Shown: one piece after another, positions 1 to 62,159 of the stretch
Layout: each line of letters begins with the position of its first letter
Numbering within the stretch: the first letter of the stretch is position 1
Assembly: GCA_038063315.1 (NCBI GenBank)
Contig: JBBTVI010000008.1
Span: 1-62,159 of the forward strand
Length of the DNA: 62,159 nucleotides
Source: Patescibacteria group bacterium
GTDB lineage: Bacteria; Patescibacteriota; Minisyncoccia; Sungbacterales; HO2-52-23
Direction: 5' to 3'
The notes under the pieces: generated by a model
What the model was told of the DNA's origin: nothing
Database searches by the model: none
What the model saw: only the letters and a program-made list of their open reading frames with translations
Program-made: the position numbers and the translations under genes

Positions 1-87
1 TTGTTTCGTCGGTGCTGCTCCTCGCGATGACAATCGAAATGGATTGCCGCGCGCCACCTCGAGGGACTCGGTGTCGCTCGCAATGAC
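1..87. repeat. REP-1 modular palindromic intergenic element, copy 1 (cut by window edge)
   Basis: CTCCTCGCGATGAC - AATCGAAAT - GGATTGCCGCGCGCC...GTCGCTCGCAATGAC; same unit sequences recur at 13 other loci. Confidence 0.85.
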
Positions 88-105
88 ATCTGTCTGGGGC
101 TTCTT

Positions 106-468
106 CTATTCTTCTTTGCGTGACGCGCGCAAACAGTCCGTAAGGCGCGGGGTCTCGGTCCAGCCGCAGGCGCCGTCCGGTTGGCGCGCGCAAACCGCGT
201 CTTTATAACAGGCGTATTCGGGCCGGAATTCGCAGGTTGTGATAACCTCCTCATCGGCACAGATATTGCCGCTGCATCCGGTGACAACGCATCCTCCGGA
301 TGGTTGAGATGTCGCTGTGTTGCCTTTTTGTTCAGGCAGAGGGGGAGGGGCCGTGCTTCGTTTGAGGACGATGACGGCGGCGGCAACGCCGGCTAGAAGG
401 AAAACAAAACCGGCGATAATGCACACAATGCAGGACTTTTTTTGTGCGTGTATATCTATCCTACTCAT
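106..468 (-). CDS. small membrane-anchored Cys-rich protein, function unknown
   Basis: 120-aa ORF; TM helix CIVCIIAGFVFLLAGVAAAVIVL, Pro-rich linker, 8-Cys C-terminal module (GGCVVTGCSGNICAD..TCEF..ACYKDAVCARQPDGACGW). Confidence 0.6.
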   Translation of the reverse strand: MSRIDIHAQKKSCIVCIIAGFVFLLAGVAAAVIVLKRSTAPPPLPEQKGNTATSQPSGGCVVTGCSGNICADEEVITTCEFRPEYACYKDAVCARQPDGACGWTETPRLTDCLRASRKEE

Positions 469-483
469 AGAGATGTGCTCATT

Positions 484-498
484 GGAGGTTAAACCTCC
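484..498. repeat. GGAGGTTAAACCTCC palindrome (short motif family, see 3781-3821 and 48128-48146)
   Basis: perfect 15-nt palindrome 16 nt upstream of the 106..468 start codon. Confidence 0.6.
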
Positions 499-560
499 TC
501 AGATTCCGCCGTCGGCTTGTTTCTCGGGCGTCTCAAGAAAATTGGCTAAAGTTCGGTTGT

Positions 561-1097
561 TTATTGTATCTCGGTTCCGTCCCATGCGAACGGGACGAAA
601 AAGACGTCAACTGAGGCGTTCTGTTTTACATCGGTGAACCATGCGTCGAAATCCTTTTTTTGAGCGGTCAGTTCTTCTTCAAGGATCTCGCGCATGGCCT
701 GCGGAATGAGAATGAATTTCTCAAAGTCGCGGCGGTTGAGTCCGAACGTCATCTCCGCGGATTGTCCGAGCGTGGACGCTTCTCTCGTGGCGTCGCGGAC
801 CCGCGCCCGGCTTTTTGCGGCAAGATCCGGCACAATGGTCTTCCCTTCGGAGGCGATCAGGATATTTTCAATGAGAAATGTGAGGGTGTTTCTTTGAGCC
901 TCGGCCACGGCAGTACCGGCGCCTCCGGTAGATTGAGCGTCAATCGAGGCCATGCGCGTTGCGGCCGACTCAAGCCGCGTCCAGCGCGCATAGGTGATGA
1001 TCCGCCCGTTGACGCGCGCGACCGGATACCAGCCGGTGATGACCAGGACGGCAAGGCATCCGAGAAGCAGGGCAAAAAAGAGATATGATTTTTTCAT
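561..1097 (-). CDS. membrane-anchored SurA-N-terminal-domain-like protein (putative chaperone-like)
   Basis: ORF trimmed to MKKSYLFFALLLGCLAVLVI (signal anchor); helical body resembling SurA_N-type domains; ATGA overlap with upstream gene stop at 1094-1097. Confidence 0.5.
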   Translation of the reverse strand: MKKSYLFFALLLGCLAVLVITGWYPVARVNGRIITYARWTRLESAATRMASIDAQSTGGAGTAVAEAQRNTLTFLIENILIASEGKTIVPDLAAKSRARVRDATREASTLGQSAEMTFGLNRRDFEKFILIPQAMREILEEELTAQKKDFDAWFTDVKQNASVDVFFVPFAWDGTEIQ

Positions 1098-1530: not shown

Positions 1531-1681
1531 TTAGAAACTGTTGAAAAAGTCATTGCGAGGAGCAGCAGCGACGAAGCAATCCATAACGCAGAAATTCTGG
1601 ATTGCTTCGCTTTCGGCTCGCAATGACGGTCGAAATGGATTGCCGCGCTCCCCCTCGCAGCTCGGGGTCGCTCGCAATGAC
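1531..1681. repeat. REP-1 element, copy 2 (with degenerate outer arm TTAGAAACTGTTGAAAAA)
   Basis: GTCATTGCGAGGAGCAGCAGCGACGAAGCAATCC ... GGATTGCTTCGC..CTCGCAATGAC ... GGATTGCCGCGCTCCCCCTCGCAGCTCGGGGTCGCTCGCAATGAC. Confidence 0.85.
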
Positions 1682-1834
1682 GACTGTGAGGGATTACTTC
1701 ATCTATGTTTCGTCACCAAAAAAAATTGCGCGCGGTCTGGATTGTTATCACGATCATCGGCGTCTTGGCGATGGTCGCGTTTACCGTTGCGCCCGCGCTA
1801 TACTGATTGTTGAGATCATCATACCGCCGCGCGG

Positions 1835-3652: not shown

Positions 3653-3682
3653 CCCCCTTTGGAAAAGGGGGATCAAGGGGGA
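3653..3682 (-). promoter_or_regulatory. C5T3/A3G5 hairpin plus second GGGGGA tract immediately upstream of lepA
   Basis: CCCCCTTTGGAAAAGGGGG ATCAAGGGGGA; a near-identical arrangement precedes trxB at 35128-35159. Confidence 0.35.
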
Positions 3683-3691
3683 TTTTGGGAT

Positions 3692-3739
3692 GATTTGCCG
3701 CGCGCCCCCCTCGCGAGACTCGGGGTCGCTCGCAATGAC
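3692..3739. repeat. REP-1 element, copy 3 (single B-type unit, reverse orientation)
   Basis: GATTTGCCGCGCGCCCCCCTCGCGAGACTCGGGGTCGCTCGCAATGAC. Confidence 0.8.
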
Positions 3740-5620: not shown

Positions 5621-5632
5621 ACCCGTGAGAGG

Positions 5633-7018
<1,386 letters not shown>

Positions 7019-7085
7019 AATGTGTGTGAATCGTAAAACGGAAATCGTCAATAGGCAAGTTTTCGCTCTGTAATGTTTTACATCC

Positions 7086-7185
7086 GTCATTGCGAGGAGT
7101 CCTGCTGCAGGACGACGAAGCAATCCAGCAGAAATACTGGATTGCCGCGCTCCCCCTCGATAGACTCGGGGTCGCTCGCAATGAC
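7086..7185. repeat. REP-1 element, copy 5 (unit A + reversed unit B)
   Basis: GTCATTGCGAGGAGTCCTGCTGCAGGACGACGAAGCAATCCAGCAGAAATACTGGATTGCCGCGCTCCCCCTCGATAGACTCGGGGTCGCTCGCAATGAC. Confidence 0.9.
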
Positions 7186-7237
7186 GGCTGTGAGCGTTTA
7201 CGTCTCTCTGTCTCGCTTTCTCTTTACTCTTGACTTT

Positions 7238-8878
7238 TTACTCGTTACTCTTAACTTCCACCTTCTTTCGTATCGGCAGTTCAATTGTAAACGTACTCCC
7301 CTTTCCCGGGCCCTTTGATTCGGCGCGCGCGGTTCCGTCGTGATCTTCCATGACGCGCCGGACAAAGTAAAGGCCGATACCCATGCCGCCCGGGTCAACG
7401 CGGCGGGCTGATTCGCTTCGCGCGAATTTCTCAAACGCCTGCGCCGTATCGTTCGCGCTCATGCCGATTCCGTTGTCTTGCACTGAGAGGCGGATGCGGC
7501 CCGCGCGCGCCTCAAGCATGACGGTGATTTCTCCTTCGGGAGTGTATTTTACGGCATTATCGAGAAGGTTCGTCACAACCTCACGCATCTTGTCTGCGTC
7601 AAAAACAGTCGAAGGGACGGCGCCCTGCTTATTGTAGCGGAGCGCAAGGTGCTTTTCCGCCGCGCGCGGGCCGAACGCATCAACGAGTTTTTGGACGATG
7701 CCGCCGAGATCTCCGGGCGTCATCTCGTACCGGATTTTTCCTGATTCAATGCGCGAGAGGTTGAGTAAACTATTGATCAGACCGACCATCTGCTCGGTAG
7801 AGGAGGCGACGCGCTCCATGGCCTCTTTGCCTTTTTTTGCCGCCGGCTTGATCGTCCCGTCGCGGAGCAATGAGATGTAGCCCTTGATGATGGTGAGCGG
7901 CGCCCGCAACTGGTGCGACGCAATGGAGATAAATTCGGATTTTGTGCGGTCAATCTGTTGCAGTGCGTGATTGGATTTGGCTAATTCCTGCGTCATCCGT
8001 TCAAGTTCGCGGCGCTGCGTTACTTCTTTTCTGACGCTGCGGATCAGCATATAGCCGAAGACGGATGTCAGGAAAAAAATAAACGAGTCAATTGTTGCTT
8101 GCGTCGGAGATATGAAGGAAAAAATCTTGGTGAAGAGAACAATGGCGAGCACGGAGACGAACATTTGGGTCGCGAAGATCTGAATACTGAAAAGATTATG
8201 CTTGACAATCGCATACGCGATAAACGTAATGAGAATGACGGGGAAGATGGGACCGAGAAAGACGAATGCGGATGTCCGGAGAATAACGACGAAGATGACC
8301 GTCGAGATCCCCATGAGGGAGAAAGAGGCAATGACGCCGGCAAGGAGATGGCGGAGTTTCATCTTCTCCTCGCCCTGGGCTCTGCGATGTTTGAGGATAA
8401 GGATGATAAAGCTGAGAATAAAAAGTCCGATGAAATCCAGGAAGAAAACCGGCATTCCGGGGCCGGGGACGGGGATGGGCTCGCCTTCCGGATAATGGAT
8501 TGATTGAAACACAAAAGGCATAAGCGATGCGGCCGCAGATGCGATCATGAGGAACAATAGGAGCGCGATAAAACGGCGGCGCATCGTTATGCGGTGTCCG
8601 GGAAACGTATGGACGAGAAGAACGAGAATAGGGCCGATGAATGACGTGACGAACATGACGGCGCGTATCCAGAAGAGTTGATCGTCAGGAGTTTGGCGTG
8701 GCGGGTGAAGCGACAGGAAATTGACGATAATGTAGAAGTCAATGGCAATAGCGAGCAATAAAAAGAGCCGGTGCGTCCAGCTTTTTGGATTGCGGATATG
8801 GATGATGGCGCCCAGCGCGGATGTCGCCGTCAGGGCCAGAACGCCGAGGAGGATTTCAATGGTGAGGAAGGGCGACAT
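7238..8878 (-). CDS. sensor histidine kinase HK-A (multi-TM N-terminal sensor, HisKA + HATPase_c)
   Basis: about 7 hydrophobic helices, H-box IASHQLRAPLT, NLLDNAVKYT, DNGIGM, GMGIGL. Confidence 0.85.
   Translation of the reverse strand: MSPFLTIEILLGVLALTATSALGAIIHIRNPKSWTHRLFLLLAIAIDFYIIVNFLSLHPPRQTPDDQLFWIRAVMFVTSFIGPILVLLVHTFPGHRITMRRRFIALLLFLMIASAAASLMPFVFQSIHYPEGEPIPVPGPGMPVFFLDFIGLFILSFIILILKHRRAQGEEKMKLRHLLAGVIASFSLMGISTVIFVVILRTSAFVFLGPIFPVILITFIAYAIVKHNLFSIQIFATQMFVSVLAIVLFTKIFSFISPTQATIDSFIFFLTSVFGYMLIRSVRKEVTQRRELERMTQELAKSNHALQQIDRTKSEFISIASHQLRAPLTIIKGYISLLRDGTIKPAAKKGKEAMERVASSTEQMVGLINSLLNLSRIESGKIRYEMTPGDLGGIVQKLVDAFGPRAAEKHLALRYNKQGAVPSTVFDADKMREVVTNLLDNAVKYTPEGEITVMLEARAGRIRLSVQDNGIGMSANDTAQAFEKFARSESARRVDPGGMGIGLYFVRRVMEDHDGTARAESKGPGKGSTFTIELPIRKKVEVKSNE
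8205..8867. repeat. 663-bp segment identical to 10914-11576 (encodes the membrane sensor module of HK-A)
   Basis: line-by-line comparison found no mismatch; flanks unrelated. Confidence 0.9.
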
Positions 8879-16764: not shown

Positions 16765-16945
16765 ATGGTATAGCCCCCGCAAAACAAAATGTCCCTTTTA
16801 TTTCTGTCATTCCCGCGAAGGCGGGAATCCAGGTTTTTCCTTTTAGATGAGGCAGAACCTGGGCCCCCGCCTGCGCGGGGGCGACAACCGGAGAGAATTA
16901 TTGCGTTATTGAAACGGTCATTTTGTTTTGCAGGGGCTATATCAT
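16765..16945. mobile_element. 181-bp MITE-like element with 27-bp terminal inverted repeats
   Basis: left ATGGTATAGCCCCCGCAAAACAAAATG, right CATTTTGTTTTGCAGGGGCTATATCAT (25/27 complementary); interior has the hairpin GTCATTCCCGCGAAGGCGGGAATCC (16806-16830) and CCCCCGCCTGCGCGGGGG. Confidence 0.5.
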
Positions 16946-22362: not shown

Positions 22363-22707
22363 GTTTTTGATGGCAAATTTTTAGCTACTGCCCGCGACCT
22401 TTCACAGATATTTGTATAGCCAAAAATCGGCCGCGTCAAGGAAATGAACAAAACCGGGTTTTTATATAGTGTAGATTCGGACTTAGACCGTTCAACTATT
22501 CGTATTTTTACACCGACTTTGACACGCGAGTGGGATAAAAAAGAAAAGGTATCAGAAAACGATGCAGAGAAAAACGGGGAGCGGGTAACCCCTCACTGAT
22601 GTCATTCTTGCGTCATGCCAAAGGCAGATCCCCGTCTTCGCCTGGCTCCGGCCGGGCAGGTGCCTCCGGCGGAAAAGCGGGAAGCTCGTGTATAATCCAC
22701 AACGCAT

Positions 22708-22733
22708 GGATTCCCGATCAAGTCGGGAATGAC
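22708..22733. repeat. GTCATTCCCG..CGGGAATCC hairpin (HP-3 family), reverse orientation
   Basis: GGATTCCCGATCAAGTCGGGAATGAC. Confidence 0.6.
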
Positions 22734-22809
22734 AATCAGAGCGGTGTGGTTGTTTGCCATCCGGCCAGCTCAGGTAGACATTTCTTCAGGAACTGGCAAG
22801 ATACACGAT

Positions 22810-24104: not shown

Positions 24105-24163
24105 TACGTTCCGCGCACTTCTCCGATTGCTATAGCCATATTAAAAAAATGCCTCTTTTTTCT

Positions 24164-24188
24164 GTCATTCCCGCGCAGGCGGGAATCC
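24164..24188. repeat. GTCATTCCCGCGCAGGCGGGAATCC hairpin (HP-3 family)
   Basis: near-identical to 16806-16830; upstream flank TATAGCC..AAAAATGCCTCTTTTTTCT resembles the left arm of the 16765 element. Confidence 0.7.
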
Positions 24189-24326
24189 AGGTTTTCTGCG
24201 TCCAAGAGGTGCTCGCATTTTGAATTTCAGGAACTGGAAGTAAAGGAAATATCCGAACACCAAGATTGTAAAAATCAGCAGGACAAATTTGAGGACAAGA
24301 GACGAATAAAAAGTGACAATGTTCAT
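24165..24326 (-). CDS. possible 53-aa hydrophobic peptide (very tentative)
   Basis: hand translation MNIVTFYSSLVLKFVLLIFTILVFGYFLYFQFLKFKM...; its 3' end runs into the HP-3 repeat, so it may be spurious. Confidence 0.2.
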   Translation of the reverse strand: MNIVTFYSSLVLKFVLLIFTILVFGYFLYFQFLKFKMRAPLGRRKPGFPPARE

Positions 24327-25173: not shown

Positions 25174-25261
25174 GTCATTGCGAGCGCCTCCGAGTTTGAC
25201 GAGGTGGCGCGCGGCAATCCAGCATTTTGGATTGCTTCGTCGTCTGACTCCTCGCAATGAC
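25174..25261. repeat. REP-1 element, copy 6
   Basis: GTCATTGCGAGCGCCTCCGAGTTTGACGAGGTGGCGCGCGGCAATCCAGCATTTTGGATTGCTTCGTCGTCTGACTCCTCGCAATGAC. Confidence 0.9.
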
Positions 25262-35449: not shown

Positions 35450-35544
35450 GTCATTGCGAGCGCCCCGAGTCTGTCGAGGGCGCGTGCGGCAATCCAGGGT
35501 TTCTGCGTATGGATTGCTTCGTCGCTGCTGCTCCTCGCAATGAC
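35450..35544. repeat. REP-1 element, copy 7
   Basis: GTCATTGCGAGCGCCCCGAGTCTGTCGAGGGCGCGTGCGGCAATCC...GGATTGCTTCGTCGCTGCTGCTCCTCGCAATGAC. Confidence 0.9.
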
Positions 35545-45069: not shown

Positions 45070-45250
45070 GTCATTGCGAGCGACCCCGAGTCTGTCGAGG
45101 GGGAGCGCGGCAATCCATTTTAATCGTCATTGCGAGCCGAAATGGATTGCTTCGTCGTCCTGCAGCAGGACTCCTCGCAATGACGACTCCCTCTGGATTG
45201 CGGAGCCTGTCCCGAGGGAAGCGAGGGATCGTCTGACTCCTCGCAATGAC
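45070..45250. repeat. REP-1 element, copy 8 (four units: B, short, A', C')
   Basis: GTCATTGCGAGCGACCCCGAGTCTGTCGAGGGGGAGCGCGGCAATCC ... GTCATTGCGAGCCGAAATGGATTGCTTCGTCGTCCTGCAGCAGGACTCCTCGCAATGAC ... GGATTGCGGAGCCTGTCCCGAGGGAAGCGAGGGATCGTCTGACTCCTCGCAATGAC. Confidence 0.9.
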
Positions 45251-49963: not shown

Positions 49964-50135
49964 GTCATTGCGAGCGACCCCGAGTCTGCTCGCCTCGCTG
50001 ACGCTATGGCGAAGCGGGTCGAGGGGGAGCGCGGCAATCCATTTCGACCGTCATTGCGAGCCGAAGGTGAAGCAATCCAGAGTTTTTGCGTTATGGATTG
50101 CTTCGTCGTCCTGCAGCAGGACTCCTCGCAATGAC
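49964..50135. repeat. REP-1 element, copy 10 (between rpoA and rpsD)
   Basis: extended unit B, then GTCATTGCGAGCCGAAGGTGAAGCAATCC, spacer, reversed unit A. Confidence 0.9.
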
Positions 50136-50787: not shown

Positions 50788-50792
50788 TGTAA

Positions 50793-51251: not shown

Positions 51252-51339
51252 GTCATTGCGAGGAGTCCTGCTGCGGGACGACGAAGCAATCCAGAAACAT
51301 CAGTGGATTGCTTCGCTCCCTGCGGTCGCTCGCAATGAC
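51252..51339. repeat. REP-1 element, copy 11 (between rpsK and rpsM)
   Basis: GTCATTGCGAGGAGTCCTGCTGCGGGACGACGAAGCAATCCAGAAACATCAGTGGATTGCTTCGCTCCCTGCGGTCGCTCGCAATGAC. Confidence 0.9.
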
Positions 51340-51746: not shown

Positions 51747-51751
51747 GCTGA

Positions 51752-51832: not shown

Positions 51833-51840
51833 CCGTCTTG

Positions 51841-51954: not shown

Positions 51955-51957
51955 TTT

Positions 51958-52185: not shown

Positions 52186-52242
52186 GGCGTATATTGGTCA
52201 ATAATAAATGAAGATTGGATATTCGTCAAGCGGAGGACTCAC

Positions 52243-54341: not shown

Positions 54342-54387
54342 GAGATTGGTGTTTAAGTCGGCGGGAACAGATTTTATCGCCAAGATA

Positions 54388-54783
54388 TTAGTTCTCACCG
54401 CCAAGGAAGTTCTGTAGCGTTTTTAAAACCTCTGTCGGATCAATGGGTTTAGGGATGTAATCATCGCAACCCGCAGCTTTGGCTTTTTCCCGGTCCCCCT
54501 GCATCGCATACGAGGTCAGCGCGATGATGGGAATTTTGTTCAAATCCGGGATCGCTTTAATCCTTTGCGTGGCCGTATAGCCGTCCAGTTTGGGGAGTTG
54601 TACGTCCATCAAAATAAGATCGGGTTTTTGCGTTTGGGCCTTCTCTATCCCGTCTAGTCCGTTATGAGCTCGGACTACCTCGTAACGATTGGCCTCCAAT
54701 AAAAATTTTATTAGATAGAAGTTATTCTCGTTGTCTTCAATCACTAAAATCTTTTTTTTAAATTTGTTTTCTTTATCCATCAT
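54388..54783 (-). CDS. single-domain response regulator (CheY-like receiver)
   Basis: ILVIEDNENN, LILMDVQLPKLDG, IIALTSYAMQGDREK, YIPKP. Confidence 0.85.
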   Translation of the reverse strand: MMDKENKFKKKILVIEDNENNFYLIKFLLEANRYEVVRAHNGLDGIEKAQTQKPDLILMDVQLPKLDGYTATQRIKAIPDLNKIPIIALTSYAMQGDREKAKAAGCDDYIPKPIDPTEVLKTLQNFLGGEN

Positions 54784-54789
54784 ATTGCT

Positions 54790-56193
54790 TTAGCTCTTGC
54801 TTCTATTTTGGGGAGGGACCTTAGGAAGAAAAATCGTAAAAGTAGAACCCTTGCCCGACTCACTGCTAAACTCCACTGTCCCGCCCATTAGTTCAATATT
54901 CTTCTTCACGATAACCAAACCAAGTCCCGTTCCTCCGAATTCACGGGTTATTCCCATGTCCGCCTGGCCGAAGGGTTTGAAGAGCTTCCCAAAATCTTCT
55001 TCTTTAATCCCGATACCAGTGTCGACCACACTAATACTGATTTTATCATCCAGTACATGACACTGCACATTCACGCTGCCCTGTTTTGTAAATTTCACAG
55101 CATTGTTGATCAGATTCAGCAGTATGACTTTAAAGCGTTGATGATCCGTTACTATCTCCTGATGGCAAGCGTCCGTCTTGCTCAATGCGATTCCCTTGAC
55201 CGCGGCCTGGGGTGTATGGCTAGAGATGATGTCCCCGATGACATCGCCAATATCAAAGGTCTTGGATACAAGTTCAGACTTACCGGCCTCAATCCGTGAC
55301 AGATCCAGCACGTCATTCACTAAATTAAGCAGATGTTCCCCGCTTTGCTCCACCACCCGGAGCTGTTTTTTCTGTTCCGGTTGAAGTTCACCTGTCAGTC
55401 CCATGAGTAAAATCTTGACAAACCCGATGATTGAATTTAAAGGAGTTCTCAATTCGTGGGACATGGTGGAAAGAAATTCCGATTTTGCCCGGGCAGCAGC
55501 CTGAGCGTCGAAAAGCGCCGCTTCCAAATTTTTGGTTCTCAACCGGATGGTTTCGGACGCCCTCCATACAATAAAGGAAAGAGTAATAAACATGAAGACA
55601 AGCGAAAGAGCAATTCGAACAATGAAATCGTTACGCACCTTGTCAATCTGTTGTATGAGGAAACCGGAACGTCCATATACCTCAACGACACCGACGGGCT
55701 TAACCTCTCCTCCAAAGGTGAGAGGCGTGTAAAATGCTATACCTTCTTTGAATTTTTTCTCATAGAGCGTCTGCGGATCGTTTGGGTCGAAACTGACAAT
55801 CCCAATCTCCGATTTCAGCGCGAGAGCGTTTTTTAGATCATCAGTCAAAGGGAAAACCCTTCCAATCAGCTGTTCCTCATCAGAATACACAATGGTACCG
55901 CGAGGATTCCAGATCTTGATCCGGAAAAGTCCCGGAAATTGAAGATTGTCGACAAAGCGTTCAAACCTGGCCTTGCTTTCTCCGACCGCAGGTTGGACAA
56001 AATCTTCGGGCAGAAGCAGTTCTGCAGCAAGCCGGTTAAAAAATACCGAGGAGTTTAATTCCTGCTGCTTCAGAACAAAAGAGGTCAGTAAGGGGCCGAC
56101 CAGCATTGAGAGAAAAATTCCGATGGCCAAAAATATGACAATGCCGAGAAGGACAAATTGGGAGAAGACGGAAAAATGTTTCATGGTTTTCAT
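54790..56193 (-). CDS. sensor histidine kinase HK-D
   Basis: H-box MSHELRTPLNSI, LINNAVKFT, DTGIGI, GTGLGL; N-terminal about 125 aa nearly identical to HK-C. Confidence 0.85.
   Translation of the reverse strand: MKTMKHFSVFSQFVLLGIVIFLAIGIFLSMLVGPLLTSFVLKQQELNSSVFFNRLAAELLLPEDFVQPAVGESKARFERFVDNLQFPGLFRIKIWNPRGTIVYSDEEQLIGRVFPLTDDLKNALALKSEIGIVSFDPNDPQTLYEKKFKEGIAFYTPLTFGGEVKPVGVVEVYGRSGFLIQQIDKVRNDFIVRIALSLVFMFITLSFIVWRASETIRLRTKNLEAALFDAQAAARAKSEFLSTMSHELRTPLNSIIGFVKILLMGLTGELQPEQKKQLRVVEQSGEHLLNLVNDVLDLSRIEAGKSELVSKTFDIGDVIGDIISSHTPQAAVKGIALSKTDACHQEIVTDHQRFKVILLNLINNAVKFTKQGSVNVQCHVLDDKISISVVDTGIGIKEEDFGKLFKPFGQADMGITREFGGTGLGLVIVKKNIELMGGTVEFSSESGKGSTFTIFLPKVPPQNRSKS
55798..56169. repeat. 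372-bp segment about 98% identical to 53308-53679
   Basis: see 53308-53679. Confidence 0.85.
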
Positions 56194-56900
56194 GGCAAAA
56201 CAGTAATAACTCCGTAGGTTGGCGGATCGTCCATTAAATGCTCATGGTACCCGTATGCGCCCGGTTTCCGAAAAGTGTACGAATAGGTCTGGCCATTGGA
56301 GATACCCCCGAGCGCATCAAATTGAGGGAGTGAACTATGCGTTGGATGGGGATCGGATCCCGGCCAATGGAGAGCATCATCATCGTTGATAAAAGTTAAG
56401 GTGTCTCGCACGTAGAGCGTGACATTAGCCGGTTGGGTGCGCGTATTGCTGTAGATGTGGATGATCACTTCTTGTGGTTCGCGTGGTGGCGAAGCCGTGA
56501 CCGTTGAAGAAGTCGGAGTCACATCGCCATTCGAAGGTTGTGGAGGAGGAGGAGGCGGTGGTTCGGGTAGCGAAGATGGTTGCGAAGGTGTTAGTGATGG
56601 TGGTGGTGGTGCGAGACGGAGAGGTGGCGGCGGAGGTGGTGCAAACACTTTCGGAGGCTGCAAAACGGAAGGTAGAGTCGTCGGTGTGTCTGAGGACATC
56701 ACCGGTGCGGGCTCATGAGGAGCAGTAACCGTCGTGGACGACGTGGATTGTTCTGTAACGTTCTGCTCAGAAGAAAGAACGGACGGGGATGGCCGGGAGG
56801 ATTCTATTTCTGTATCTCGAACTCTCAAAAAATCAACGCTGGCCAGACCCAGAGCAAGAAACAAAACTATAGCAAACAGAATCAAGATTTTGGTTTTCAT
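56190..56900 (-). CDS. membrane-anchored Pro-rich protein with C-terminal His-rich cupredoxin-like module
   Basis: signal anchor MKTKILILFAIVLFLAL, PPPPPPLRLAPPPPS linker, C-terminal TFINDDDALHWPGSDPHPTHS...GAYGYHEHL; start trimmed to MKTKIL. Confidence 0.65.
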   Translation of the reverse strand: MKTKILILFAIVLFLALGLASVDFLRVRDTEIESSRPSPSVLSSEQNVTEQSTSSTTVTAPHEPAPVMSSDTPTTLPSVLQPPKVFAPPPPPPLRLAPPPPSLTPSQPSSLPEPPPPPPPQPSNGDVTPTSSTVTASPPREPQEVIIHIYSNTRTQPANVTLYVRDTLTFINDDDALHWPGSDPHPTHSSLPQFDALGGISNGQTYSYTFRKPGAYGYHEHLMDDPPTYGVITVLP

Positions 56901-56945
56901 CAATAAAGCTCCCTGCATCAAAGGTGTAAACAACGCTCAGTATTC

Positions 56946-57127
56946 TTAGAAACCGTCTAAAAACCTCCCATCCGTCATTGCGAGCGACCCCGAGTTGTCG
57001 AGGGGGCGCGCGGCAATCCAGGAATTTTTCTGGATTGCGGAGCCTGTCCCGAGCCCTTCGACTGCACTCAGGATAAACTCCGCGAAGGATCGTCTGACTC
57101 CTCGCAATGACTTTTTAGACGGTTTCT
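56946..57127. repeat. REP-1 element, copy 12, nested inside outer inverted repeat TTAGAAACCGTCTAAAAA / TTTTTAGACGGTTTCT
   Basis: core 56974-57111 = unit B + extended reversed unit C. Confidence 0.9.
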
Positions 57128-57135
57128 TACACCAA

Positions 57136-59340
57136 TTATTTTACAATAATCCGACCGCGTTTCCGGACAAAAAGGTGATCATGATAATCCCAACTACCCT
57201 TCTCGGTAAAAATAAAGGTATAAGATTCGCCGGGTTTTATCCCGCGACACGCATCGAAAGCGCTTTGGAAACACCCGCCACCTTCGGGATAACCAGTATG
57301 AATAGGGTGAGGATCGGTTGCGGGCCACGAAAGATTTTGTGTGTTATTGATCCATCGAATCGTATCTCCGGCAGATATGTTTAATTGCTGAGAGGAGAAA
57401 CCATTCTCATCGATAAAGACAATGTTTTGTTTCTCCACCGGGGAAACCCGCAATACGACTCCGGGGATTTCCTTTTGGTTTGATGCCGCGTCGAGAAATG
57501 CATTAAGTTTTGCCCTGGTCTTTGGACCTACTATCCCAAGACCCGTATCGCGTTGGGTGCCCTCAGATATAATACCATATTGCCACTGGAAACGCTGCAC
57601 AGCCAATTGTGTCAGTGGTCCAAAATAACCAGTCCGTAATCCCTCGGGATACAGAATGGCATCTTGCGCCAACCACTCCTGAAGAATATAAACCTCTTCG
57701 TCGCGCATGCCGAATCGGAGCGTTTTCGTGACTACAAGACGCTTTTTTTCCTCTCCTTCATTAGATATGCCGAGCGGCATCGTCAACTCCAGGATCTTTC
57801 TTTGTACTTCTTTCAGTTGTGCTGTCATTTTTTCCAGGGTAACTGCGACGTCTTTTTTCTCCTCAACAATTGGGGTAATAGTGCTGTCGGTCATTGTCGA
57901 AGTTGCGGTCTCTCCCACCGGACCTTTGGAAATTTCAGGGAGAAGCGTCGCTGCCGACGTAAAAGAGGGATGGGTTGAAAATTCACCCTGCCACGCAAAA
58001 GGAAAAATACCATAAAAATATTTCTTCGCAGGCTCAAGCCCCTTGTCTTCAAATTCTTCGCTGCGTCCCCGGAAGATGACTTGCCCATCATGGGGGCCGG
58101 CAGGGAGAGCAAGTTCGTTACGCACAATCTGGACGCCCAAGAAATCTTCTTCTACGGGATTTTTCCATTGAAGAATCGTGGAGGTAGGGCGTGGATCCAA
58201 AGAGAGACGCGCCACCCGAAAAGTTGTCGTGGTAGCGGTTGCTATCTGGGGAAGAGGAACCGACGGAAGATCTTTTCGGGGAGTCAGCAGGATACGAATG
58301 GGGCCGACACTGAGACCGAGTCCATTTTGGCTGAAAATAGAATAATAATAGGTTACATCGTTTTTCGCATCGTCGTCATAGGCATAGCGGCCATCACGGC
58401 TCACCGCTATCAGGAACGCCTCCTCCTGAGGATTTTCGGCAAACCGGTCGGTCCTGCGTACTACCAATACTCGGGAGAAATTAATATCGACGGGGTTGAC
58501 CCAGGAAAGAATAACACCGTTTGATCCTGCGACGCCAAAGGCACTGGTGACGGTAAGTGGCGGCCTGTCGGAAAGAGTACGAAAAGGAACGGAGGGTTTC
58601 GAAGCGACGCTGTCGAAACCATGGGTAAATTCATAAGCCGCAATAAAATATTTCGCGTCGTACAGCGTATCGGGATTTAATCCGTTGACGGCAAACTCTA
58701 TGATCTCGCCATTGTCCACGATTCTATCCTGAAAATCGACTGATTGTATGATTCCTCCGGAATCTTCATAGAGCCTTATGCGATACATTTCTCTTTCCCA
58801 TGGAGATTTAAATTGAAAACGCGCTGAGTAAAACGAAGGTATGACATTAATAAACTCTGCGGGGGTCTCAAAACTCTGCGGTGCCGTCAAAATAACTGGT
58901 CCTTTTCTAACGACGGTCGTCGCGGCAGCACAACTTGCGCGGACGGCAAAATTCGCATTAGATTGATCCCAGACGTTGGTGGAATTATGATTATTATTGT
59001 GTGCCTCGACCCATATACGGCCTGTTTCGGATATATCGCCGCTACTGGGGGTCCAATCAAATGTTGTTTGTGTGAGCGGATGTTTAATGGCCGAAGAATC
59101 TATGTTTCCCCCTCCGGCGGCGGCAGCAGGTTGTGTGCCGTCGGTTTTATAATAAAGAGCCGCATGGTCCGTATCCCCTGACAGAGTCACCGTGACGGTG
59201 TAGGATTGCCCGACCGTCAGACATTCTGCTCCGTTGGGCAACGTCACAGAAACCGAAACGGCATTGGCATCAAAAGCAATGCCCAAAAATAATAGAATGA
59301 GAAAAAAAGTTATTTTCTTCACGTGGGGATGTAACGACAA
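57136..59340 (-). CDS. large secreted/cell-surface protein (Ig/FN3-like repeats, peptidoglycan-binding-like domain, C-terminal His-rich cupredoxin-like module)
   Basis: signal peptide KKITFFLILLFLGIAFDANA; PG_binding-like MRDEEVYILQEWLAQD..GYFGPLTQLAVQRFQ; C-terminal IRWINNTQNLSWPATDPHPIHT...GSWDYHDHL. Confidence 0.7.
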   Translation of the reverse strand: MSLHPHVKKITFFLILLFLGIAFDANAVSVSVTLPNGAECLTVGQSYTVTVTLSGDTDHAALYYKTDGTQPAAAAGGGNIDSSAIKHPLTQTTFDWTPSSGDISETGRIWVEAHNNNHNSTNVWDQSNANFAVRASCAAATTVVRKGPVILTAPQSFETPAEFINVIPSFYSARFQFKSPWEREMYRIRLYEDSGGIIQSVDFQDRIVDNGEIIEFAVNGLNPDTLYDAKYFIAAYEFTHGFDSVASKPSVPFRTLSDRPPLTVTSAFGVAGSNGVILSWVNPVDINFSRVLVVRRTDRFAENPQEEAFLIAVSRDGRYAYDDDAKNDVTYYYSIFSQNGLGLSVGPIRILLTPRKDLPSVPLPQIATATTTTFRVARLSLDPRPTSTILQWKNPVEEDFLGVQIVRNELALPAGPHDGQVIFRGRSEEFEDKGLEPAKKYFYGIFPFAWQGEFSTHPSFTSAATLLPEISKGPVGETATSTMTDSTITPIVEEKKDVAVTLEKMTAQLKEVQRKILELTMPLGISNEGEEKKRLVVTKTLRFGMRDEEVYILQEWLAQDAILYPEGLRTGYFGPLTQLAVQRFQWQYGIISEGTQRDTGLGIVGPKTRAKLNAFLDAASNQKEIPGVVLRVSPVEKQNIVFIDENGFSSQQLNISAGDTIRWINNTQNLSWPATDPHPIHTGYPEGGGCFQSAFDACRGIKPGESYTFIFTEKGSWDYHDHLFVRKRGRIIVK

Positions 59341-59355
59341 AAGTAAAATATTTTT

Positions 59356-59494
59356 TTAAGAAACCGTCTAAAAACCTCCCATCCGTCATTGCGAGCGACC
59401 CCGAGTCATCGAGGGGGCGCGCGGCAATCCAGGATTTTGGATTGCGGAGCCTGTCCCGAGCGAAGCGAGGGATCCATCCATTCCTCGCAATGAC
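59356..59494. repeat. REP-1 element, copy 13 (left outer arm only)
   Basis: TTAAGAAACCGTCTAAAAACCTCCCATCC + unit B + reversed unit C. Confidence 0.9.
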
Positions 59495-59512
59495 GGATAT
59501 GAAAATTTATTC

Positions 59513-61981
59513 TTATTCATCGGCCATCCCGCTTGCGGAGCCGCGCGATTGGTGGCGGGAGGCGATATCCGCTTCCACTTCCTCGCGCGGGCGGCCGTAC
59601 GTCATCCGGGACATTTCTTTGATGATCGCGGCGGTCTCGGGATTCCCTTTTTCGGGCGCAAATGTCTTCATGCTAAAGGGCTGGGATGTGGCTCCGCGGA
59701 CCAGGAGCTTGACTGCGGCATTGGCGTTTTCGATATTCAGGAGATCCTGCTCGGCGAAAACCGGAGCGAATTGTTTTGCCATGAATTCCGCATCGTCTGA
59801 GCCGATGCGGAATGCGGCCACGGAGCCGACATTGCCGAAGACGGCCTTTTTTATTTCGTCCGTGAGCTGGCCGATGAATTGGTGCGTGATCGTCATGTCC
59901 AATTTGTACTTACGCGCCTCGGAAAGAATGGTCGCGATGGACGGCGTTGTGACGTTCTGGAATTCGTCAATATAGAGATAAAAATCCGTTCTCTCCTGTT
60001 CGGGGATGTCAACGCGGGAGAACGCGGCCATGAGGAGCTTGCCCACGACGATGAGGCCGATGAAGGACGAATTGATCTCGCCCAGGCGCCCCTTCGAGAG
60101 ATTCACGAGAAGGATTTTTCGGTTATCAATAATGTCGCGGAAATTAAAAGCGGATTTCTGCTGGGCGATGATCGGCCGCATGATTTCGTTTGCGACGAAA
60201 TTGTCGGTCTTGGAGGTGATGTACGGGACCATGTTGCGGAGCTCCCCTTCTCCGCCGGCTTTTTCGGCGACCTCGGTCCAAAATTGGTTGACGACGATGT
60301 TTTGGCTCCGGCTGAGTTTGAGATCGCGGAAATTTTTCTCGGCGAGCACCCGGCCGATTTCCAGAATCGTGCTGCCGCTCGACGGGTCTTCAATGACAAG
60401 AAGGGTGGCGTTCCGGAAATACTGCTGGAACATCGGGCCGATCGCCTCGGGGACTTGCCCGAAGAGCTTGATAAAAATGCTCAAAAGCTCGTTAACGACG
60501 AATGTTTTCTGTTCGGGGAACCGCTCGTCGTATTCGAGCATGTTGAGGCCCATGGGCCGGGCCGTGTCGCCCGGATTGAAGTAAACGACGTCTGATGCGC
60601 GCTCGCGCGGGACAAATCCGAGAATGTCCTCTACCATGTCGCCGTGCGGATCAATGACGCAGACGCCCCTGCCGGCCGCAATGTCCTGGATGATCATGTT
60701 TTTCAGGAAGACCGATTTTCCGGTTCCGGTCTGGCCGATAATATAGAGGTGGCGCCTGCGGTCGTCGTCCTGGATATAGACGTTCCGGGTTTGCCCCCGG
60801 AAAACATTATAGCCGAGGAGCAGGCCTTCCGGGGCGAGAGTTGTCGGAGCTGGCGCCTCGCGCGCGCGGACGCGGCTGATGCGCGGGGTGCGTAGCGGGA
60901 CGTTTTCGAAATGGAAAAGCGATGTTAGTTCCTCGGTGCCGAGGAGGGCGATGTCGGTTTTGGCGAAGCTGCGAAAGGAAAATTGAAAAATGAGCCGTTC
61001 GAGCCTCTTACCGGAGAGTGTCGTCATGTTGAATCGGTTGAGGTTTGAATCCGCGAATTGTTCAAATGCAAGGCCGATCTCGCGGACAATGTCGGTCGCG
61101 CGGTTCGCGGTCGGGGCTGCGGCGATGATGCGGATATTGGTTTCAAAAAGCGTCTGATTGGCCTTGTGGTCAATGGCGCGCGCGAGCTCTTCTTCAAGAG
61201 GTGTCATTTTGCGCTGTGCGGCCTCGGCGGCCTTGTCCGGTTCCGCTGCCGGGGCCTTCATCGCGTCCACCGCCGCGACAGCCCCGCGGAGTGTTTTGAG
61301 AAACGCGTCGTCGCGCTCCGGCGGCCGCTTACCCGCGTAGAGGTCGCGAACGTATTCTTTCATTTTTTTGCGCCATTTATCGCGCGCCGGGCGCGCAACG
61401 ATCTGAAGCGCCGCTCCTTCGCCGGATGCGGCGAGCTTCATAAATGCATTGGTGATCGCGGCAATCGGATCGCCTTCGAGTTTTTGATACGTGCGGACCG
61501 GGAAATAATACGGGCGTTCAAGCCGCAGCACGGCTCCGCTTGCGGCACCTTGCGGCGCGAATATATTGTAGTCGTCGGACCGCTCGACATGCGCATCCGG
61601 AAAAATGCCCTGGATCGCCTTTTCGACCGCGGGCAGGAGGCGCCGCGAGACCGCGACGTAAAAGGCCAGTTCTTCGCCGACAACCGGAATGTTGAGTTCA
61701 AGCGCAAAGCTCGGTGGCCCGTAAAGCAGGGGCGCCCACCAGACAGTGTCGCGGATGGAGCCGAGATGCGCGTAGCATTGTTCCATGAGCGCGATTTTCT
61801 CGCGCATCTGTTGAAGTGGGAGGTCAGCCGGCGGTTGGTTCGGAAAGCGAATGGCGAGGAGCCCCATGTTAAGGGAGCGCTGTACTGTCCCTCGTCGTTG
61901 CATGCGGCGGCGGACAACGAAAAAGAGAGCCGCAATTGCGGCGCAGATGAAGATAACAATAGGAATTAAGAATTTTTCCAC
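59513..61981 (-). CDS. VirD4/TraG/TraD-family (type IV coupling protein-like) P-loop ATPase with N-terminal TM helix
   Basis: Walker A IIGQTGTGKS, VIDPHGD, Walker B FYLYIDEFQNV, TITHQFIGQL (TraG-D_C-like). Confidence 0.72.
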   Translation of the reverse strand: MEKFLIPIVIFICAAIAALFFVVRRRMQRRGTVQRSLNMGLLAIRFPNQPPADLPLQQMREKIALMEQCYAHLGSIRDTVWWAPLLYGPPSFALELNIPVVGEELAFYVAVSRRLLPAVEKAIQGIFPDAHVERSDDYNIFAPQGAASGAVLRLERPYYFPVRTYQKLEGDPIAAITNAFMKLAASGEGAALQIVARPARDKWRKKMKEYVRDLYAGKRPPERDDAFLKTLRGAVAAVDAMKAPAAEPDKAAEAAQRKMTPLEEELARAIDHKANQTLFETNIRIIAAAPTANRATDIVREIGLAFEQFADSNLNRFNMTTLSGKRLERLIFQFSFRSFAKTDIALLGTEELTSLFHFENVPLRTPRISRVRAREAPAPTTLAPEGLLLGYNVFRGQTRNVYIQDDDRRRHLYIIGQTGTGKSVFLKNMIIQDIAAGRGVCVIDPHGDMVEDILGFVPRERASDVVYFNPGDTARPMGLNMLEYDERFPEQKTFVVNELLSIFIKLFGQVPEAIGPMFQQYFRNATLLVIEDPSSGSTILEIGRVLAEKNFRDLKLSRSQNIVVNQFWTEVAEKAGGEGELRNMVPYITSKTDNFVANEIMRPIIAQQKSAFNFRDIIDNRKILLVNLSKGRLGEINSSFIGLIVVGKLLMAAFSRVDIPEQERTDFYLYIDEFQNVTTPSIATILSEARKYKLDMTITHQFIGQLTDEIKKAVFGNVGSVAAFRIGSDDAEFMAKQFAPVFAEQDLLNIENANAAVKLLVRGATSQPFSMKTFAPEKGNPETAAIIKEMSRMTYGRPREEVEADIASRHQSRGSASGMADE

Positions 61982-62066
61982 GACTTATGAATGACGTTGC
62001 TTTGACCGAAGAAAAAGAGTAATGAGTGCAATCCTTCACAGCCCTATTAAGATCATCATTACACGT

Positions 62067-62159
62067 GTCATTGCGAGGAGTGGAGGAATCCCTCACTTCG
62101 CTCAGGACAGGCTCCGCAATCCAGAGGGAGTCGTCATTGCGAGGAGTCCTGCTGCAGGA
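62067..62159. repeat. REP-1 element, copy 14 (unit C forward + unit A, cut by window edge)
   Basis: GTCATTGCGAGGAGTGGAGGAATCCCTCACTTCGCTCAGGACAGGCTCCGCAATCC AGAGGGAGTC GTCATTGCGAGGAGTCCTGCTGCAGGA. Confidence 0.85.

Follow-up and report, generated by a model that had tools for sequence, protein, structure and literature searches.

The palindromic repeats in the intergenic DNA of the window (the whole 62,159-nt stretch of patescibacterial DNA analyzed here) are best explained as non-coding, non-autonomous, REPIN-like mobile DNA that belongs to the CGTC REP superfamily and is moved in trans, a reading to which we assign a probability of roughly 0.7. On the evidence of their sequences, the repeats are REP-type units of the already described CGTC-tagged superfamily, whose defining marks they carry: an unpaired tag, A-T and T-A as the opening pairs of the stem, a CCA tail and HH (tag-outward) doublets. 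This superfamily comprises families CGTC-1 to CGTC-4 (Di Nocera, De Gregorio & Rocco 2013, BMC Genomics 14:522, PMC3733652) and includes Neisseria dRS3/NIME, where dRS3 is CGTC-1, and Rickettsia RPE-4 and RPE-6. Compared with the text description of the four published families, the ATTGCGAG type does not fit any of them, because its stem is interrupted. The first-pass annotation had held that a match to a catalogued REP family would remove the novelty; such a match exists for the superfamily marks but does not extend to the four families as the text describes them. An interrupted-stem type of CGTC REP and its patescibacterial host would be new, the CGTC-tagged superfamily itself being already known.

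Searching both strands of the window for GTCATTGCGAG with at most one mismatch returned 33 matches where 1.53 were expected (shuffle maximum 4), and GCAATCC was seen 39 times versus 14.6 expected. GTCATTGCGAG marks 31 hairpin units across the same 14 loci that were first reported (Table 1). One match, at 38138, is a chance occurrence unrelated to the elements. A covariance model drawn mostly from copies outside the window recovered 28 complete units at E < 0.05, missing the long C unit at 57032-57111 and two units cut by the window ends; applied to 21 kb of a relative, it returned 0 units. Together the 31 units occupy ~1.64 kb (2.6%) of the window, in line with the initial estimate of about 1.6 kb. 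The first-pass annotation distinguished three unit types, a number that is too low, as at least four to five are present (A, short A*, B, C and D/D2). Its locus at 3692-3739 is real, but the tail there is degenerate and does not end in GCAATCC, and its two edge loci are correctly placed but are pieces of four-unit clusters. The host is a tiny groundwater CPR (candidate phyla radiation) bacterium, in whose intergenic DNA the repeats are unusually dense.

Table 1. Repeat units, composites and associated modules in the window.
Positions	Strand	Feature	Context and remarks
1..87		4-unit cluster (B, short A*, A', C' with nested insert), right-hand part	cut by window start; whole cluster in source contig, L139 11391-11658
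1549..1681		trimer A*(+), spacer, D(-), linker ATTTCGACC, B(-)	between lepA and ftsL-like gene
1684..1697	-	GTAAYCNCTCACAG flank module	adjoins tag; more copies at 5623-5636, 7188-7201, 50138-50151
3687..3739	-	single B unit, degenerate tail GCAAATC	ndk/lepA spacer; adjoins CCCCCTTTGGAAAAGGGGG palindrome; covariance model 18.9 bits
5473..5620		trimer A(+), spacer, A*(-), linker, B(-)	begins 12 nt past aspS stop codon
7086..7185		HH doublet A(+)/B(-)	99/100 identity to 47999-48098, opposite orientation
16805..16831	+	canonical CGTC-1 (dRS3-type) unit TGTC-ATTCCCGC-GAAG-GCGGGAAT-CCA	fits PMC3733652 description
22707..22734	-	CGTC-1-like unit TGTC-ATTCCCGA-CTTGA-TCGGGAAT-CCA	from sequence
24163..24189	+	canonical CGTC-1 unit TGTC-ATTCCCGC-GCAG-GCGGGAAT-CCA	covariance model search and sequence
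25174..25261		HH doublet B(+)/short A(-)	covariance model and sequence comparison
35450..35544		HH doublet B(+)/A*(-)	between thioredoxin-like lipoprotein gene and glutaredoxin-like gene
45070..45250		4-unit cluster B, truncated D, A', C'	occupies murA-mreB spacer; begins 4 nt past murA stop codon
47999..48098		HH doublet B(+)/A(-)	rplM/rpsI spacer; outer inverted repeat AAACCGTCTAAAAA at 47974-47987 / 48099-48112
49964..50135		trimer B, linker, D, spacer, A'	rpsD/rpoA spacer; B apical loop with ~30-nt insertion
51252..51339		HH doublet A(+)/D2(-)	rpsM/rpsK spacer; dG -48.2, z -6.5
56974..57111		HH doublet B(+)/C(-)	nested palindromic module GTTTATCCTGAGTGCAGTCGAAG in C; outer inverted repeat 56950-56963 / 57112-57125
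59385..59494		HH doublet B(+)/C(-)	left copy only of outer repeat (59361-59374)
62067..62159		4-unit cluster (C, A, ...), left-hand part	cut by window end; whole cluster in L141 3914-4127

Inspection of the units reveals a common layout of YGTC, ATTGC, GA, variable hairpin, GNR, GCAAT and CCA. A 5-bp basal stem (ATTGC/GCAAT) leads into a conserved, asymmetric internal loop (GA facing GAA, GTG or GCG) and then into a covarying apical hairpin that retains its structure and is free in sequence and length. The unpaired tag YGTC is present in 24 of 26 window units and in 180 of 192 units from other loci, and the unpaired CCA tail in all 26 window units. Folding and apical covariation both bear out the initial description of the units as hairpins. 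Two-sided changes occur at 7/7 pairs of the apical helix, and the suggested check for compensatory substitutions among copies yielded 129 double-change cells versus 48 in shuffles (0/500). Apical pairing reaches 91.7%, versus 20-57% with slid partners, and the apical segments include 18 different stem halves, with 3.25 terminal pairs versus 0.45 when shuffled. Nearly every covarying pair is Watson-Crick, and only ~5 of ~390 cells in the covarying helix are G-U. Predicted folds are very stable (-48 to -69 kcal/mol, z near -6); that of 7086-7185 is a 4-way junction (dG -49.6 to -55 kcal/mol, z -6.5 to -6.8).

As the first reading had it, most units form inverted pairs with a short A/T-rich spacer between them, and in all doublets they stand tail-to-tail with the tags outside (HH, REPIN-like). 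Fixed 9-10-nt linkers attach extra units head-to-tail, giving trimers and tetramers, among which B-linker-X-spacer-A' and B-X-spacer-A'-C' recur. At the first five B-bearing loci (window start, 1549, 3692, 5473 and 7086) the B unit lies on the minus strand; at the next seven (25174 to 59385) it lies on the plus strand. The 100-bp B-spacer-A' doublet at 47999-48098 matches the inverted 7086-7185 at 99 of 100 positions, with unrelated flanks. Because of this pair and the recurring trimer and tetramer, whole composites are seen to be copied, and the earlier proposal of module shuffling rather than copying of a master element is not supported. A free-standing inverted pair of the GTAAYCNCTCACAG flank module lies at 16180-16193 / 16312-16325, and at locus L134 the module flanks a doublet on both sides as an inverted repeat.

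Presence of the elements is lineage-specific. Sungbacteria-like relatives that keep the gene order carry 0 units, and their corresponding spacers measure 24-46 bp; whole doublets are gained or lost between contigs ~80% identical. Filled and empty sites were compared at ~63% (RpoA) or ~80% (phage contigs) identity, which is too distant for exact junctions. The sibling comparison called for at the outset delivered unit-free relatives with the same operons. Target-site duplications are absent at 42 of 46 non-redundant doublets. The core and the doublet architecture recur on one Methylosinus and one Calothrix plasmid, and the core alone, at the level of a sequence match, in Methylocystis, Novosphingobium, Legionella, Halomonas and Nostocales plasmids. 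Further units occur in other Patescibacteria, a Planctomycetia MAG, a Gammaproteobacteria MAG and phage contigs, where they sit between portal and capsid genes, such that the core sequence spans Alpha- and Gammaproteobacteria, Cyanobacteria, a Planctomycetia MAG, Patescibacteria and phages. Among the functions originally listed, a non-autonomous mobile element is the best supported.

All 14 loci are intergenic, as first noted, lying 4-153 nt past the upstream stop and 15-85 nt ahead of the next start when measured at every locus. Placement of four copies within co-directional essential pairs (murA/mreB, rplM/rpsI, rpsD/rpoA and rpsM/rpsK) is confirmed, all on the minus strand, and spurious ORF starts and extensions do arise inside elements, as in the aspS ORF (5633..7123) with its TTG start within 7086-7185. 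REPs of E. coli shield upstream mRNA, and near a stop codon they stall ribosomes. A position past stop codons, between genes of the same direction, together with such stable folds, could suggest that the hairpins are mainly cis-acting RNA (mRNA stabilizers, processing sites or translation-coupling brakes) selected to tune operons such as rpsM-rpsK-rpsD-rpoA, and PMC3733652 makes the case that transcription of many REPs lets them work as RNA. We consider this unlikely, however, since neither orientation relative to transcription is reserved for the composites (7 versus 5 in the window) or for single units outside it (14 sense, 11 antisense), and the covarying pairs are nearly all Watson-Crick. 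The same operons exist in relatives without units, and the same sequence stands beside unrelated genes in unrelated phyla and phages. Rfam gave no match even at E <= 5 and no T-run was seen after the hairpins, which, with both orientations and few G-U pairs, speaks against the structured RNA, terminator and attenuator options raised initially.

Even less credence is due to multiplication through recombination instead of transposition, as proposed for Neisseria dRS3. This repeat of the same superfamily is a known integration site of filamentous phages (PMC1797815; PMC3733652), and the presence of units in phage contigs, the small palindromic modules nested in apical loops and the missing target-site duplications would all suit such a process. 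In contrast, no recombinase, integrase or prophage boundary adjoins any of the 14 loci, and a 99/100 doublet in two unrelated contexts resembles discrete insertion rather than flank exchange. Ordinary MITEs, derived by deletion from an insertion sequence that has a DDE transposase and the terminal inverted repeats CGTCATTGCGAG, are very improbable: doublets of 66-141 bp do carry perfect 11-12-bp terminal inverted repeats, but the missing duplications, the existence of single units and head-to-tail arrays, and the lack of any longer element with the same ends around a transposase in 1.2 Mb of loci already largely refute this origin. Least probable of all is a host signal read as double-stranded DNA (an uptake sequence, or a gyrase or nucleoid-protein binding site). 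The short motif is strongly over-represented, and CPR bacteria are believed to rely on taking up DNA, but the motif is confined to intergenic palindromes, common to unrelated phyla and phages and missing from sister genomes, with the apical part kept as structure and not sequence.

Under the preferred reading of non-autonomous mobile DNA, doublets or clusters would be copied whole into new intergenic sites without target-site duplication, through a putative transposition step catalyzed in trans by an enzyme encoded outside the window. Neither the window nor a further 13 kb of flanking DNA (~75 kb of a ~1-Mb genome) showed a transposase, and no RayT homologue was found across 1.2 Mb of unit-bearing loci; the latter agrees with the description of CGTC REPs as lacking a dedicated transposase in PMC3733652. 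The most likely route would be recognition and cleavage of a folded single-stranded hairpin in the style of HUH/Y1 enzymes (RAYT or IS200-like), with a site-specific recombinase as the alternative. Elements inside operons would be co-transcribed because of that location, folding into very stable RNA hairpins that may shield upstream mRNA from 3' exonucleases, and where a stop codon is at most ~15 nt away (4 nt for murA, 12 nt for aspS), a hairpin might hamper terminating ribosomes. These effects on mRNA and ribosomes are regarded as side effects and not as the reason the elements exist.

Comparison with the CGTC superfamily, as described in PMC3733652, reveals extensive likeness: the unpaired CGTC/TGTC tag, the A-T then T-A stem opening, the unpaired CCA tail, a majority of HH heterodimers with short spacers, intergenic sites where the neighboring genes are co-directional or convergent, cases of insertion into other palindromes and no linked transposase. 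Canonical CGTC-1 units share the window, and CGTC-1 HH doublets share its contig. In contrast to the published stems of 8-9 uninterrupted bp with a 4-5-nt loop, those of the window have 5 bp, a GA/GNR internal loop and an apical hairpin that varies from 2 to 8 bp or more. Trimers and tetramers with fixed linkers are common in the window, whereas that text calls such clusters rare; copies in phage contigs are a further difference, and Patescibacteria (CPR) are not among the five phyla it names.

Neisseria NIMEs (Parkhill 2000; Bentley 2007, PMC1797815) likewise combine several types of repeat into intergenic mosaics, and three units of the window are of their dRS3 kind (ATTCCC-N8-GGGAAT; CGTC-1). 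NIME arrays consist of long dRS3 runs split by 50-150-bp RS elements near surface-protein genes, whereas the main units of the window are of another family, paired over 8-20-nt spacers and spread throughout housekeeping operons. The REP/BIME and REPIN-RAYT systems of Enterobacteria and Pseudomonas are similar in several ways: their hairpin units carry a conserved, unpaired tetranucleotide at the 5' end, their inverted doublets fold as one long hairpin and spread as whole copies without target-site duplication, unit types alternate (compare Y and Z in E. coli), and sites lie inside operons. Their tag is GTAG, in contrast to CGTC in the type described here, near no copy of which a RAYT gene was found, and they are described as lineage-specific and vertically inherited, whereas the core of the window units is common to several phyla. 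Rickettsia RPE-4 and RPE-6 have been assigned to CGTC-4 and CGTC-1, respectively (PMC3733652). Many Rickettsia RPEs lie in frame inside genes, in contrast to the intergenic loci of the window, but they are alike in that repeats of such a kind can thrive in small, reduced genomes.

The repeat is far more frequent in the window than composition predicts. With up to one mismatch allowed on both strands of the 62,159-base window, GTCATTGCGAG occurs 33 times against 1.53 expected from shuffled sequences (maximum 4), and GCAATCC occurs 39 times against 14.6 expected. A covariance model of the unit, trained mainly on copies from outside the window, recovers 28 complete units at E < 0.05 and none in 21 kb of a related genome. 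It overlooks three more, namely the long C unit at 57032-57111 and one truncated unit at each window end, so that 31 units are present in total, covering ~1.64 kb or 2.6% of the window; a further GTCATTGCGAG match at 38138 is a chance occurrence and not a unit. Reading the sequence confirms units at all 14 loci listed by the first-pass annotation, and both the motif excess and the model matches uphold its observation of a repeat. Its interpretation survives in part: the hairpin structure and the intergenic placement hold, and the proposed shuffling of modules does not.

The window derives from a Hainich aquifer (well H51) metagenome, and the containing contig is 98.9 kb long (GCA_964492515.1, CAZBKK010000003.1). 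Because the RpoA protein is only 57-64% identical to its nearest proteins, of which those with organism names belong to Candidatus Sungbacteria or Parcubacteria, the host is a deep-branching CPR/Patescibacteria bacterium. Nearly all window genes lie on the minus strand, including lepA, ndk, aspS, several histidine kinases, mreB, murA and vapBC as well as rpsI, rplM, rplQ, rpoA, rpsD, rpsK, rpsM and infA. Every element is located 4-153 nt past the upstream stop codon and 15-85 nt ahead of the next start, which agrees with the claim of strictly intergenic placement; the four operon positions proposed (mreB-murA, rpsI-rplM, rpoA-rpsD and rpsK-rpsM) are likewise correct. ORFs that begin or extend within elements are artefacts, as had been suspected, with the TTG start of the 5633..7123 aspS ORF as an example. 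Logan contigs of the source samples (DNA runs) terminate at the elements, where depth is 15-85x that of adjacent single-copy sequence, and many copies must therefore exist within the community. The joints in these contigs were considered as empty sites and rejected, since they are repeat-mediated chimeras, and no precise empty-site joint was recovered from the Logan contigs. The repeats thus break metagenome assemblies, and they also give rise to false ORFs and wrongly extended N-termini in CPR annotations. A model of the family would clear many "hypothetical proteins" from annotation and flag contig ends.

Inspection of individual units yields the formula Y-GTC / ATTGC / GA / apical hairpin / G-N-R / GCAAT / CC-A. 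Of 26 window units, 17 carry C immediately 5' of GTCATTGCGAG, 7 carry T and 2 carry A; C or T fills this position in 180/192 units from other loci. In 46 doublets (pairs of units that meet at their tails, so that the tags face outward), C accounts for 73% and T for 18%. All 26 window units (26/26) continue from GCAAT into CCA; at other loci, 72 units have A after GCAATCC, 64 have G, 46 have C and 10 have T. ATTGC and GCAAT form the basal stem in all units and the closing stem in single-unit folds, where both belonged to the search pattern and the invariance of the stem outside the window consequently carries no weight.

The apical part was examined in an alignment of 64 distinct units from the window, phage contigs and other genomes. 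Changes on both sides are found in 7/7 apical pairs, double-change cells number 129 versus 48 in shuffles (a value reached in 0/500 shuffles), and 91.7% of apical cells pair, compared with 20-57% after the partner is shifted by 1-3 columns. The 155 distinct apical segments comprise 18 different 4-nt stem halves, and the mean terminal Watson-Crick run is 3.25 versus 0.45 in shuffles. Taken alone, the apical segments give weak thermodynamic z-scores (mean -0.8), as many of their stems span just 2-4 bp, and terminal-pair counts and covariation are more informative for them. That is to say, the structure of the apical part is conserved and its sequence is not. Folds and covariation together bear out the proposal that units are hairpins. 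G-U pairs are nearly absent (~5 cells in the 64-unit alignment), which is more in keeping with a palindrome that is read on both strands of the DNA than with a structure formed by RNA only.

The first-pass annotation had considered a terminator, and an intrinsic terminator is contradicted by the lack of an adjacent T-run at the flanks and of any unit among the terminator-like sites in 44000-60000. Nor does the possibility of an already catalogued RNA family hold, as the elements match no Rfam family even at E <= 5 and only three tRNAs reach gathering scores. Orientation relative to transcription is mixed: in composites, the B unit lies distal to the promoter at 7 loci and proximal to it at 5, and single units in other loci are sense in 14 cases and antisense in 11 by crude ORF calls. 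The elements are probably co-transcribed with their host operons, in which case their RNA hairpins could act as barriers to 3'-exonucleases, and those at distances of up to about 15 nt from a stop codon (murA, 4 nt; aspS, 12 nt) may impede ribosomes during termination. E. coli REPs are known to have both effects.

Doublets measure 88-138 bp, with tail-to-tail units, tags outside and an A/T-rich spacer of 8-20 nt. Their folds are four-way junctions (dG -48 to -69 kcal/mol, z about -6 to -6.8). Extra units are joined head-to-tail through the fixed linkers ATTTCGAYC or AGAGGGAGTC, yielding recurrent trimers and tetramers, and some elements are enclosed by outer palindromic layers. One such layer, GTAAYCNCTCACAG, flanks both sides of a doublet in a related MAG. 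A free-standing inverted pair of a flank module could be a palindromic element in its own right or an outer shell that is "empty". The apical loops of B at 49964 and C at 57032 contain smaller, nested palindromic modules, the CCTTCGACTGCGCTCAGGGTAAACTCC module also lies within CGTC-1 units immediately outside the window, and hairpin loops seem to be favoured insertion points for other mini-palindromes. The CCCCCTTTGGAAAAGGGGG-type palindrome may be another small repeat family or a terminator. The first five loci with a B unit (window start, 1549, 3692, 5473, 7086) have it on the minus strand, and the following seven (25174 to 59385) have it on the plus strand. Under random order, so clean a split would have a chance of ~2 in 792. 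Neither gene direction nor the sign of GC skew changes across the window to match, and the split could reflect local copying.

Palindromic units, composites and other repeated features. Positions refer to the window unless preceded by L126 or L128 (loci of Sungbacteria-like relatives) or by L139 or L141 (stretches of the source contig); a prime marks an inverted unit.
Feature	Position	Strand	Remark
CGTC-1 unit TGTCATTCCCGCGAAGGCGGGAATCCA	16805-16831	+	canonical dRS3 type
CGTC-1 unit TGTCATTCCCGCGCAGGCGGGAATCCA	24163-24189	+	canonical dRS3 type
CGTC-1 unit	22707-22734	-	dRS3 type
Trimer B-linker-X-spacer-A'	1549, 5473, 49964		recurrent
Tetramer B-X-spacer-A'-C'	45070 and both window edges		recurrent
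Outer palindromic layer AAACCGTCTAAAAA / TTTTTAGACGGTTT			5 copies; encloses some elements
Outer palindromic layer GTAAYCNCTCACAG	free-standing at 16180/16312		9 copies; encloses some elements
Flank module GTAACCGCTCACC... and complement	16180-16325		free-standing inverted pair around ~118 bp; no CGTC unit within
Nested palindrome CCTTCGACTGC(A/G)CTCAGG(A/G)TAAACTCC	57056-57078; L139 19322-19539; L141 3508-3600		C-unit apical loop in the window; CGTC-1 units in L139 and L141
Palindrome CCCCCTTTGGAAAAGGGGG	3653-3671		adjoins single B unit
Palindrome CCCCCTTTTGAAAAAGGGGG	L139 ~19990		similar to CCCCCTTTGGAAAAGGGGG
Palindrome GACACG...GCTAAGGGTCG...CCTCCCATTGTC, ~110 nt	L126 10970-11176, 20758-20940; L128 15250-15433		murA-mreB spacer; in L126 also rpoA-rplQ spacer
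663-bp direct repeat	8205-8867 and 10914-11576		100% identity; in histidine-kinase genes 7238-8878 and 9413-11599
423-bp duplication	26239-26661 / 31743-32165		95% identity; leaves short ORF fragment 26384-26650 at the 26.3-kb copy
629-bp repeat	53066-53693 / 55556-56183		85% identity; in two further histidine-kinase genes
CreD-like ORF and neighbouring gp19-like gene	20855-21556 / 21826-22362		one ORF matches CreD profile 203-428 of 428

The window holds other repeated sequence as well. A perfect 663-bp direct repeat spans the N-terminal 7TM regions of two neighbouring histidine-kinase genes; it stems from a very recent duplication or gene conversion, if it is not an assembly artefact. A 423-bp duplication comprises tRNA-Gln(TTG) and the 3' end of a dnaX-like clamp-loader gene, and a 629-bp repeat covers the N-terminal parts of two further histidine-kinase genes. 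Paralogous two-component genes are unusually numerous in the window by the standards of CPR genomes. One ORF shows a match to CreD in the C-terminal half alone and may be a truncated gene. It adjoins a T4 gp19-like tail-tube protein, which hints at a contractile injection system or prophage remnant.

Comparison of copies addresses how the elements spread. The doublet at 47999-48098 and the inverted doublet at 7086-7185 are identical at 99/100 positions including the spacer, with unrelated flanks. Whole composites are copied as units, which contradicts the earlier proposal of module shuffling rather than copying. Presence of the units is lineage-specific. Two relatives keep the gene order infA-rpmJ-rpsM-rpsK-rpsD-rpoA-rplQ-rplM-rpsI...murA-mreB and carry no unit, and one of the two, CP066690 (923 kb), has spacers of 24-46 bp. 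Phage-like contigs ~80% identical to each other differ in whether a given position holds a whole doublet. Sungbacteria relatives that lack CGTC units carry another conserved palindrome of ~110 nt in the murA-mreB spacer and, in L126, in the rpoA-rplQ spacer too, and the same spacers therefore hold other repeats in sister lineages.

Target-site duplication is absent in 42/46 non-redundant doublets from all sources, the remainder having duplications of 1 nt (3/46) or 3 nt (1/46). The lack of duplication speaks against a DDE-type MITE and fits hairpin-based (HUH/Y1) or recombinase mechanisms. No transposase is encoded in ~75 kb of contig (the window and 13 kb of extra flank). With E. coli RayT as the sole probe, phmmer found no RayT homologue among all ORFs in 1.2 Mb of unit-bearing loci, and no single-copy RAYT (Y1 HUH) gene flanked by REPs (a REPtron) was found in the window, the 13-kb flank or these loci. 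A search for an autonomous element, in the form of outward tags 0.3-4.5 kb apart around a gene, returned only phage structural genes or junk ORFs; the genes with units on both sides encode portal, capsid, DUF3164 and pilin-like proteins, and no transposase is among the genes so bracketed. The doublets would be non-autonomous elements moved in trans via a folded single-stranded intermediate, and the recognition site of the mobilising enzyme may comprise tag, basal stem and internal loop.

Units are distributed well beyond this host. Scanning IMG/VR with GTCATTGCGAG-N10-40-GCAATCC gives at least 120 loci, for which the 36-letter pattern space makes tens of chance matches possible. Among the matches listed, nearly all have a clean apical hairpin, many loci are multi-unit, and some belong to true phage genomes in which units flank portal and capsid genes. 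A plasmid of Methylosinus trichosporium OB3b has a complete doublet of the same unit, 33 nt long, between convergent genes, and core matches to this unit occur in plasmids of Methylocystis, Novosphingobium, Legionella and Halomonas and of Calothrix, Aulosira, Trichormus and Tolypothrix; none of the plasmid copies in cultured bacteria is annotated. For the B-type head, a scan of the genome collection gave only 8 loci, one of which (Kocuria) is a chance match within a gene. It is present in other Patescibacteria and Saccharibacteria MAGs, where one Hainich bin and one other MAG have the same composites and flank modules, and also in a Planctomycetia MAG and a Gammaproteobacteria MAG. Two architectures describe the units overall, namely the tag-outward doublet and a same-orientation array of single units, mostly of the TGTC...GTG-GCAATCC-G subtype.

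We put at roughly one in four the chance that CGTC doublets are copied by an unrecognised, non-RAYT enzyme or route that was recently active in this ~1-Mb CPR genome, and that they are carried between phyla by phages. Recent activity is suggested by the 99/100 identical copies, and carriage by phages would explain the identical 18-nt core common to Patescibacteria, Proteobacteria, Cyanobacteria and phage contigs. Were this so, the mobiliser of CGTC REPs, dRS3 and RPE could be sought within narrower limits, given the very small gene set of this bacterium and its phages; the question of the mobiliser dates from 2013 for CGTC REPs and from 2000 for dRS3. The main interest lies in this mobiliser and in the core sequence common to phyla and phages.

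Several known systems can be set aside on sequence, namely the hammerhead ribozyme, the kink-turn, CRISPR and dif/Xer sites. Integron attC sites (R''/R' cores RYYYAAC ... GTTRRRY, in cassette arrays beside intI) are rejected as well, given that the ends here are GTCATTGC ... GCAATCC, the neighbours are housekeeping genes and an integrase is absent. With the REPIN-RAYT system, the elements have in common inverted doublets that form a single hairpin and are copied whole (z -6 to -6.8; 99/100 pair). In contrast to its GTAG (GT[AG]G) 5' tetranucleotide, however, the tag here is C/T-GTC.

REP-type repeats are usually discussed for Proteobacteria, and the CPR group is known for small, streamlined genomes; here, a REP repeat makes up 2.6% of a CPR genome stretch and lies within the ribosomal-protein/rpoA operon. 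No literature linking REPs with CPR bacteria was found, and full-text searches with literal sequences and encoded peptides returned only chance primer matches. The closest likeness is to the CGTC-tagged REPs, defined by an unpaired terminal CGTC (TGTC or CCTC allowed) at one hairpin end, a stem opening with complementary A-T residues at positions 1-2, and a short unpaired 3' tail with CCA consensus (Di Nocera, De Gregorio & Rocco 2013, PMC3733652). CGTC REPs occur mostly as HH dimers (tags outside) with no transposase gene flanked by repeats, and no dedicated mobilising enzyme is known for them (PMC3733652). Among REP superfamilies, only this one lacks a known mobiliser. Units in the window end in an unpaired C/T-GTC tag (24/26, and 180/192 elsewhere), open their stem with A-T/T-A pairs (ATTGC/GCAAT, all units) and carry the CCA tail in 26/26 cases. 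All doublets have their tags outside, transposase is absent from ~75 kb of contig, and heterodimers, intergenic positions between co-directional genes and insertion within other palindromes are further points in common.

The stem sets the elements apart. In families CGTC-1 to CGTC-4, stems span 8-9 bp and loops 4-5 nt, and the authors state that bulged types may have been missed (PMC3733652). Relative to these families as described in the text of that paper, the stem of the window unit has 5 bp and leads through an internal loop to an apical hairpin whose length varies. ATTGCGAG is absent from the paper's text and supplements, its consensus Figure 2 aside, and on these descriptions the ATTGCGAG type departs from the four published families in its interrupted stem and variable apical hairpin. 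Neisseria dRS3 (ATTCCC-N8-GGGAAT, the NIME-array core) and Rickettsia RPE-6 are assigned to CGTC-1, and RPE-4 to CGTC-4 (PMC3733652). Three units of the dRS3 type, unlisted in the first-pass annotation, lie in the window itself. They have the form TGTC-ATTCCCGC-loop-GCGGGAAT-CCA with the 8-9-bp stem and 4-5-nt loop, and the two on the plus strand are followed by AGGTTTT(C/T)C, which resembles the spacers of CGTC-1 doublets also present elsewhere in the contig. Their occurrence in the same window and contig ties the CGTC-1 and ATTGCGAG types together through the common GTC-ATT...AAT-CCA. The elements add one more family to an established class of repeats, the CGTC-tagged REPs, in a host phylum that is new for them and at an unusually high density.
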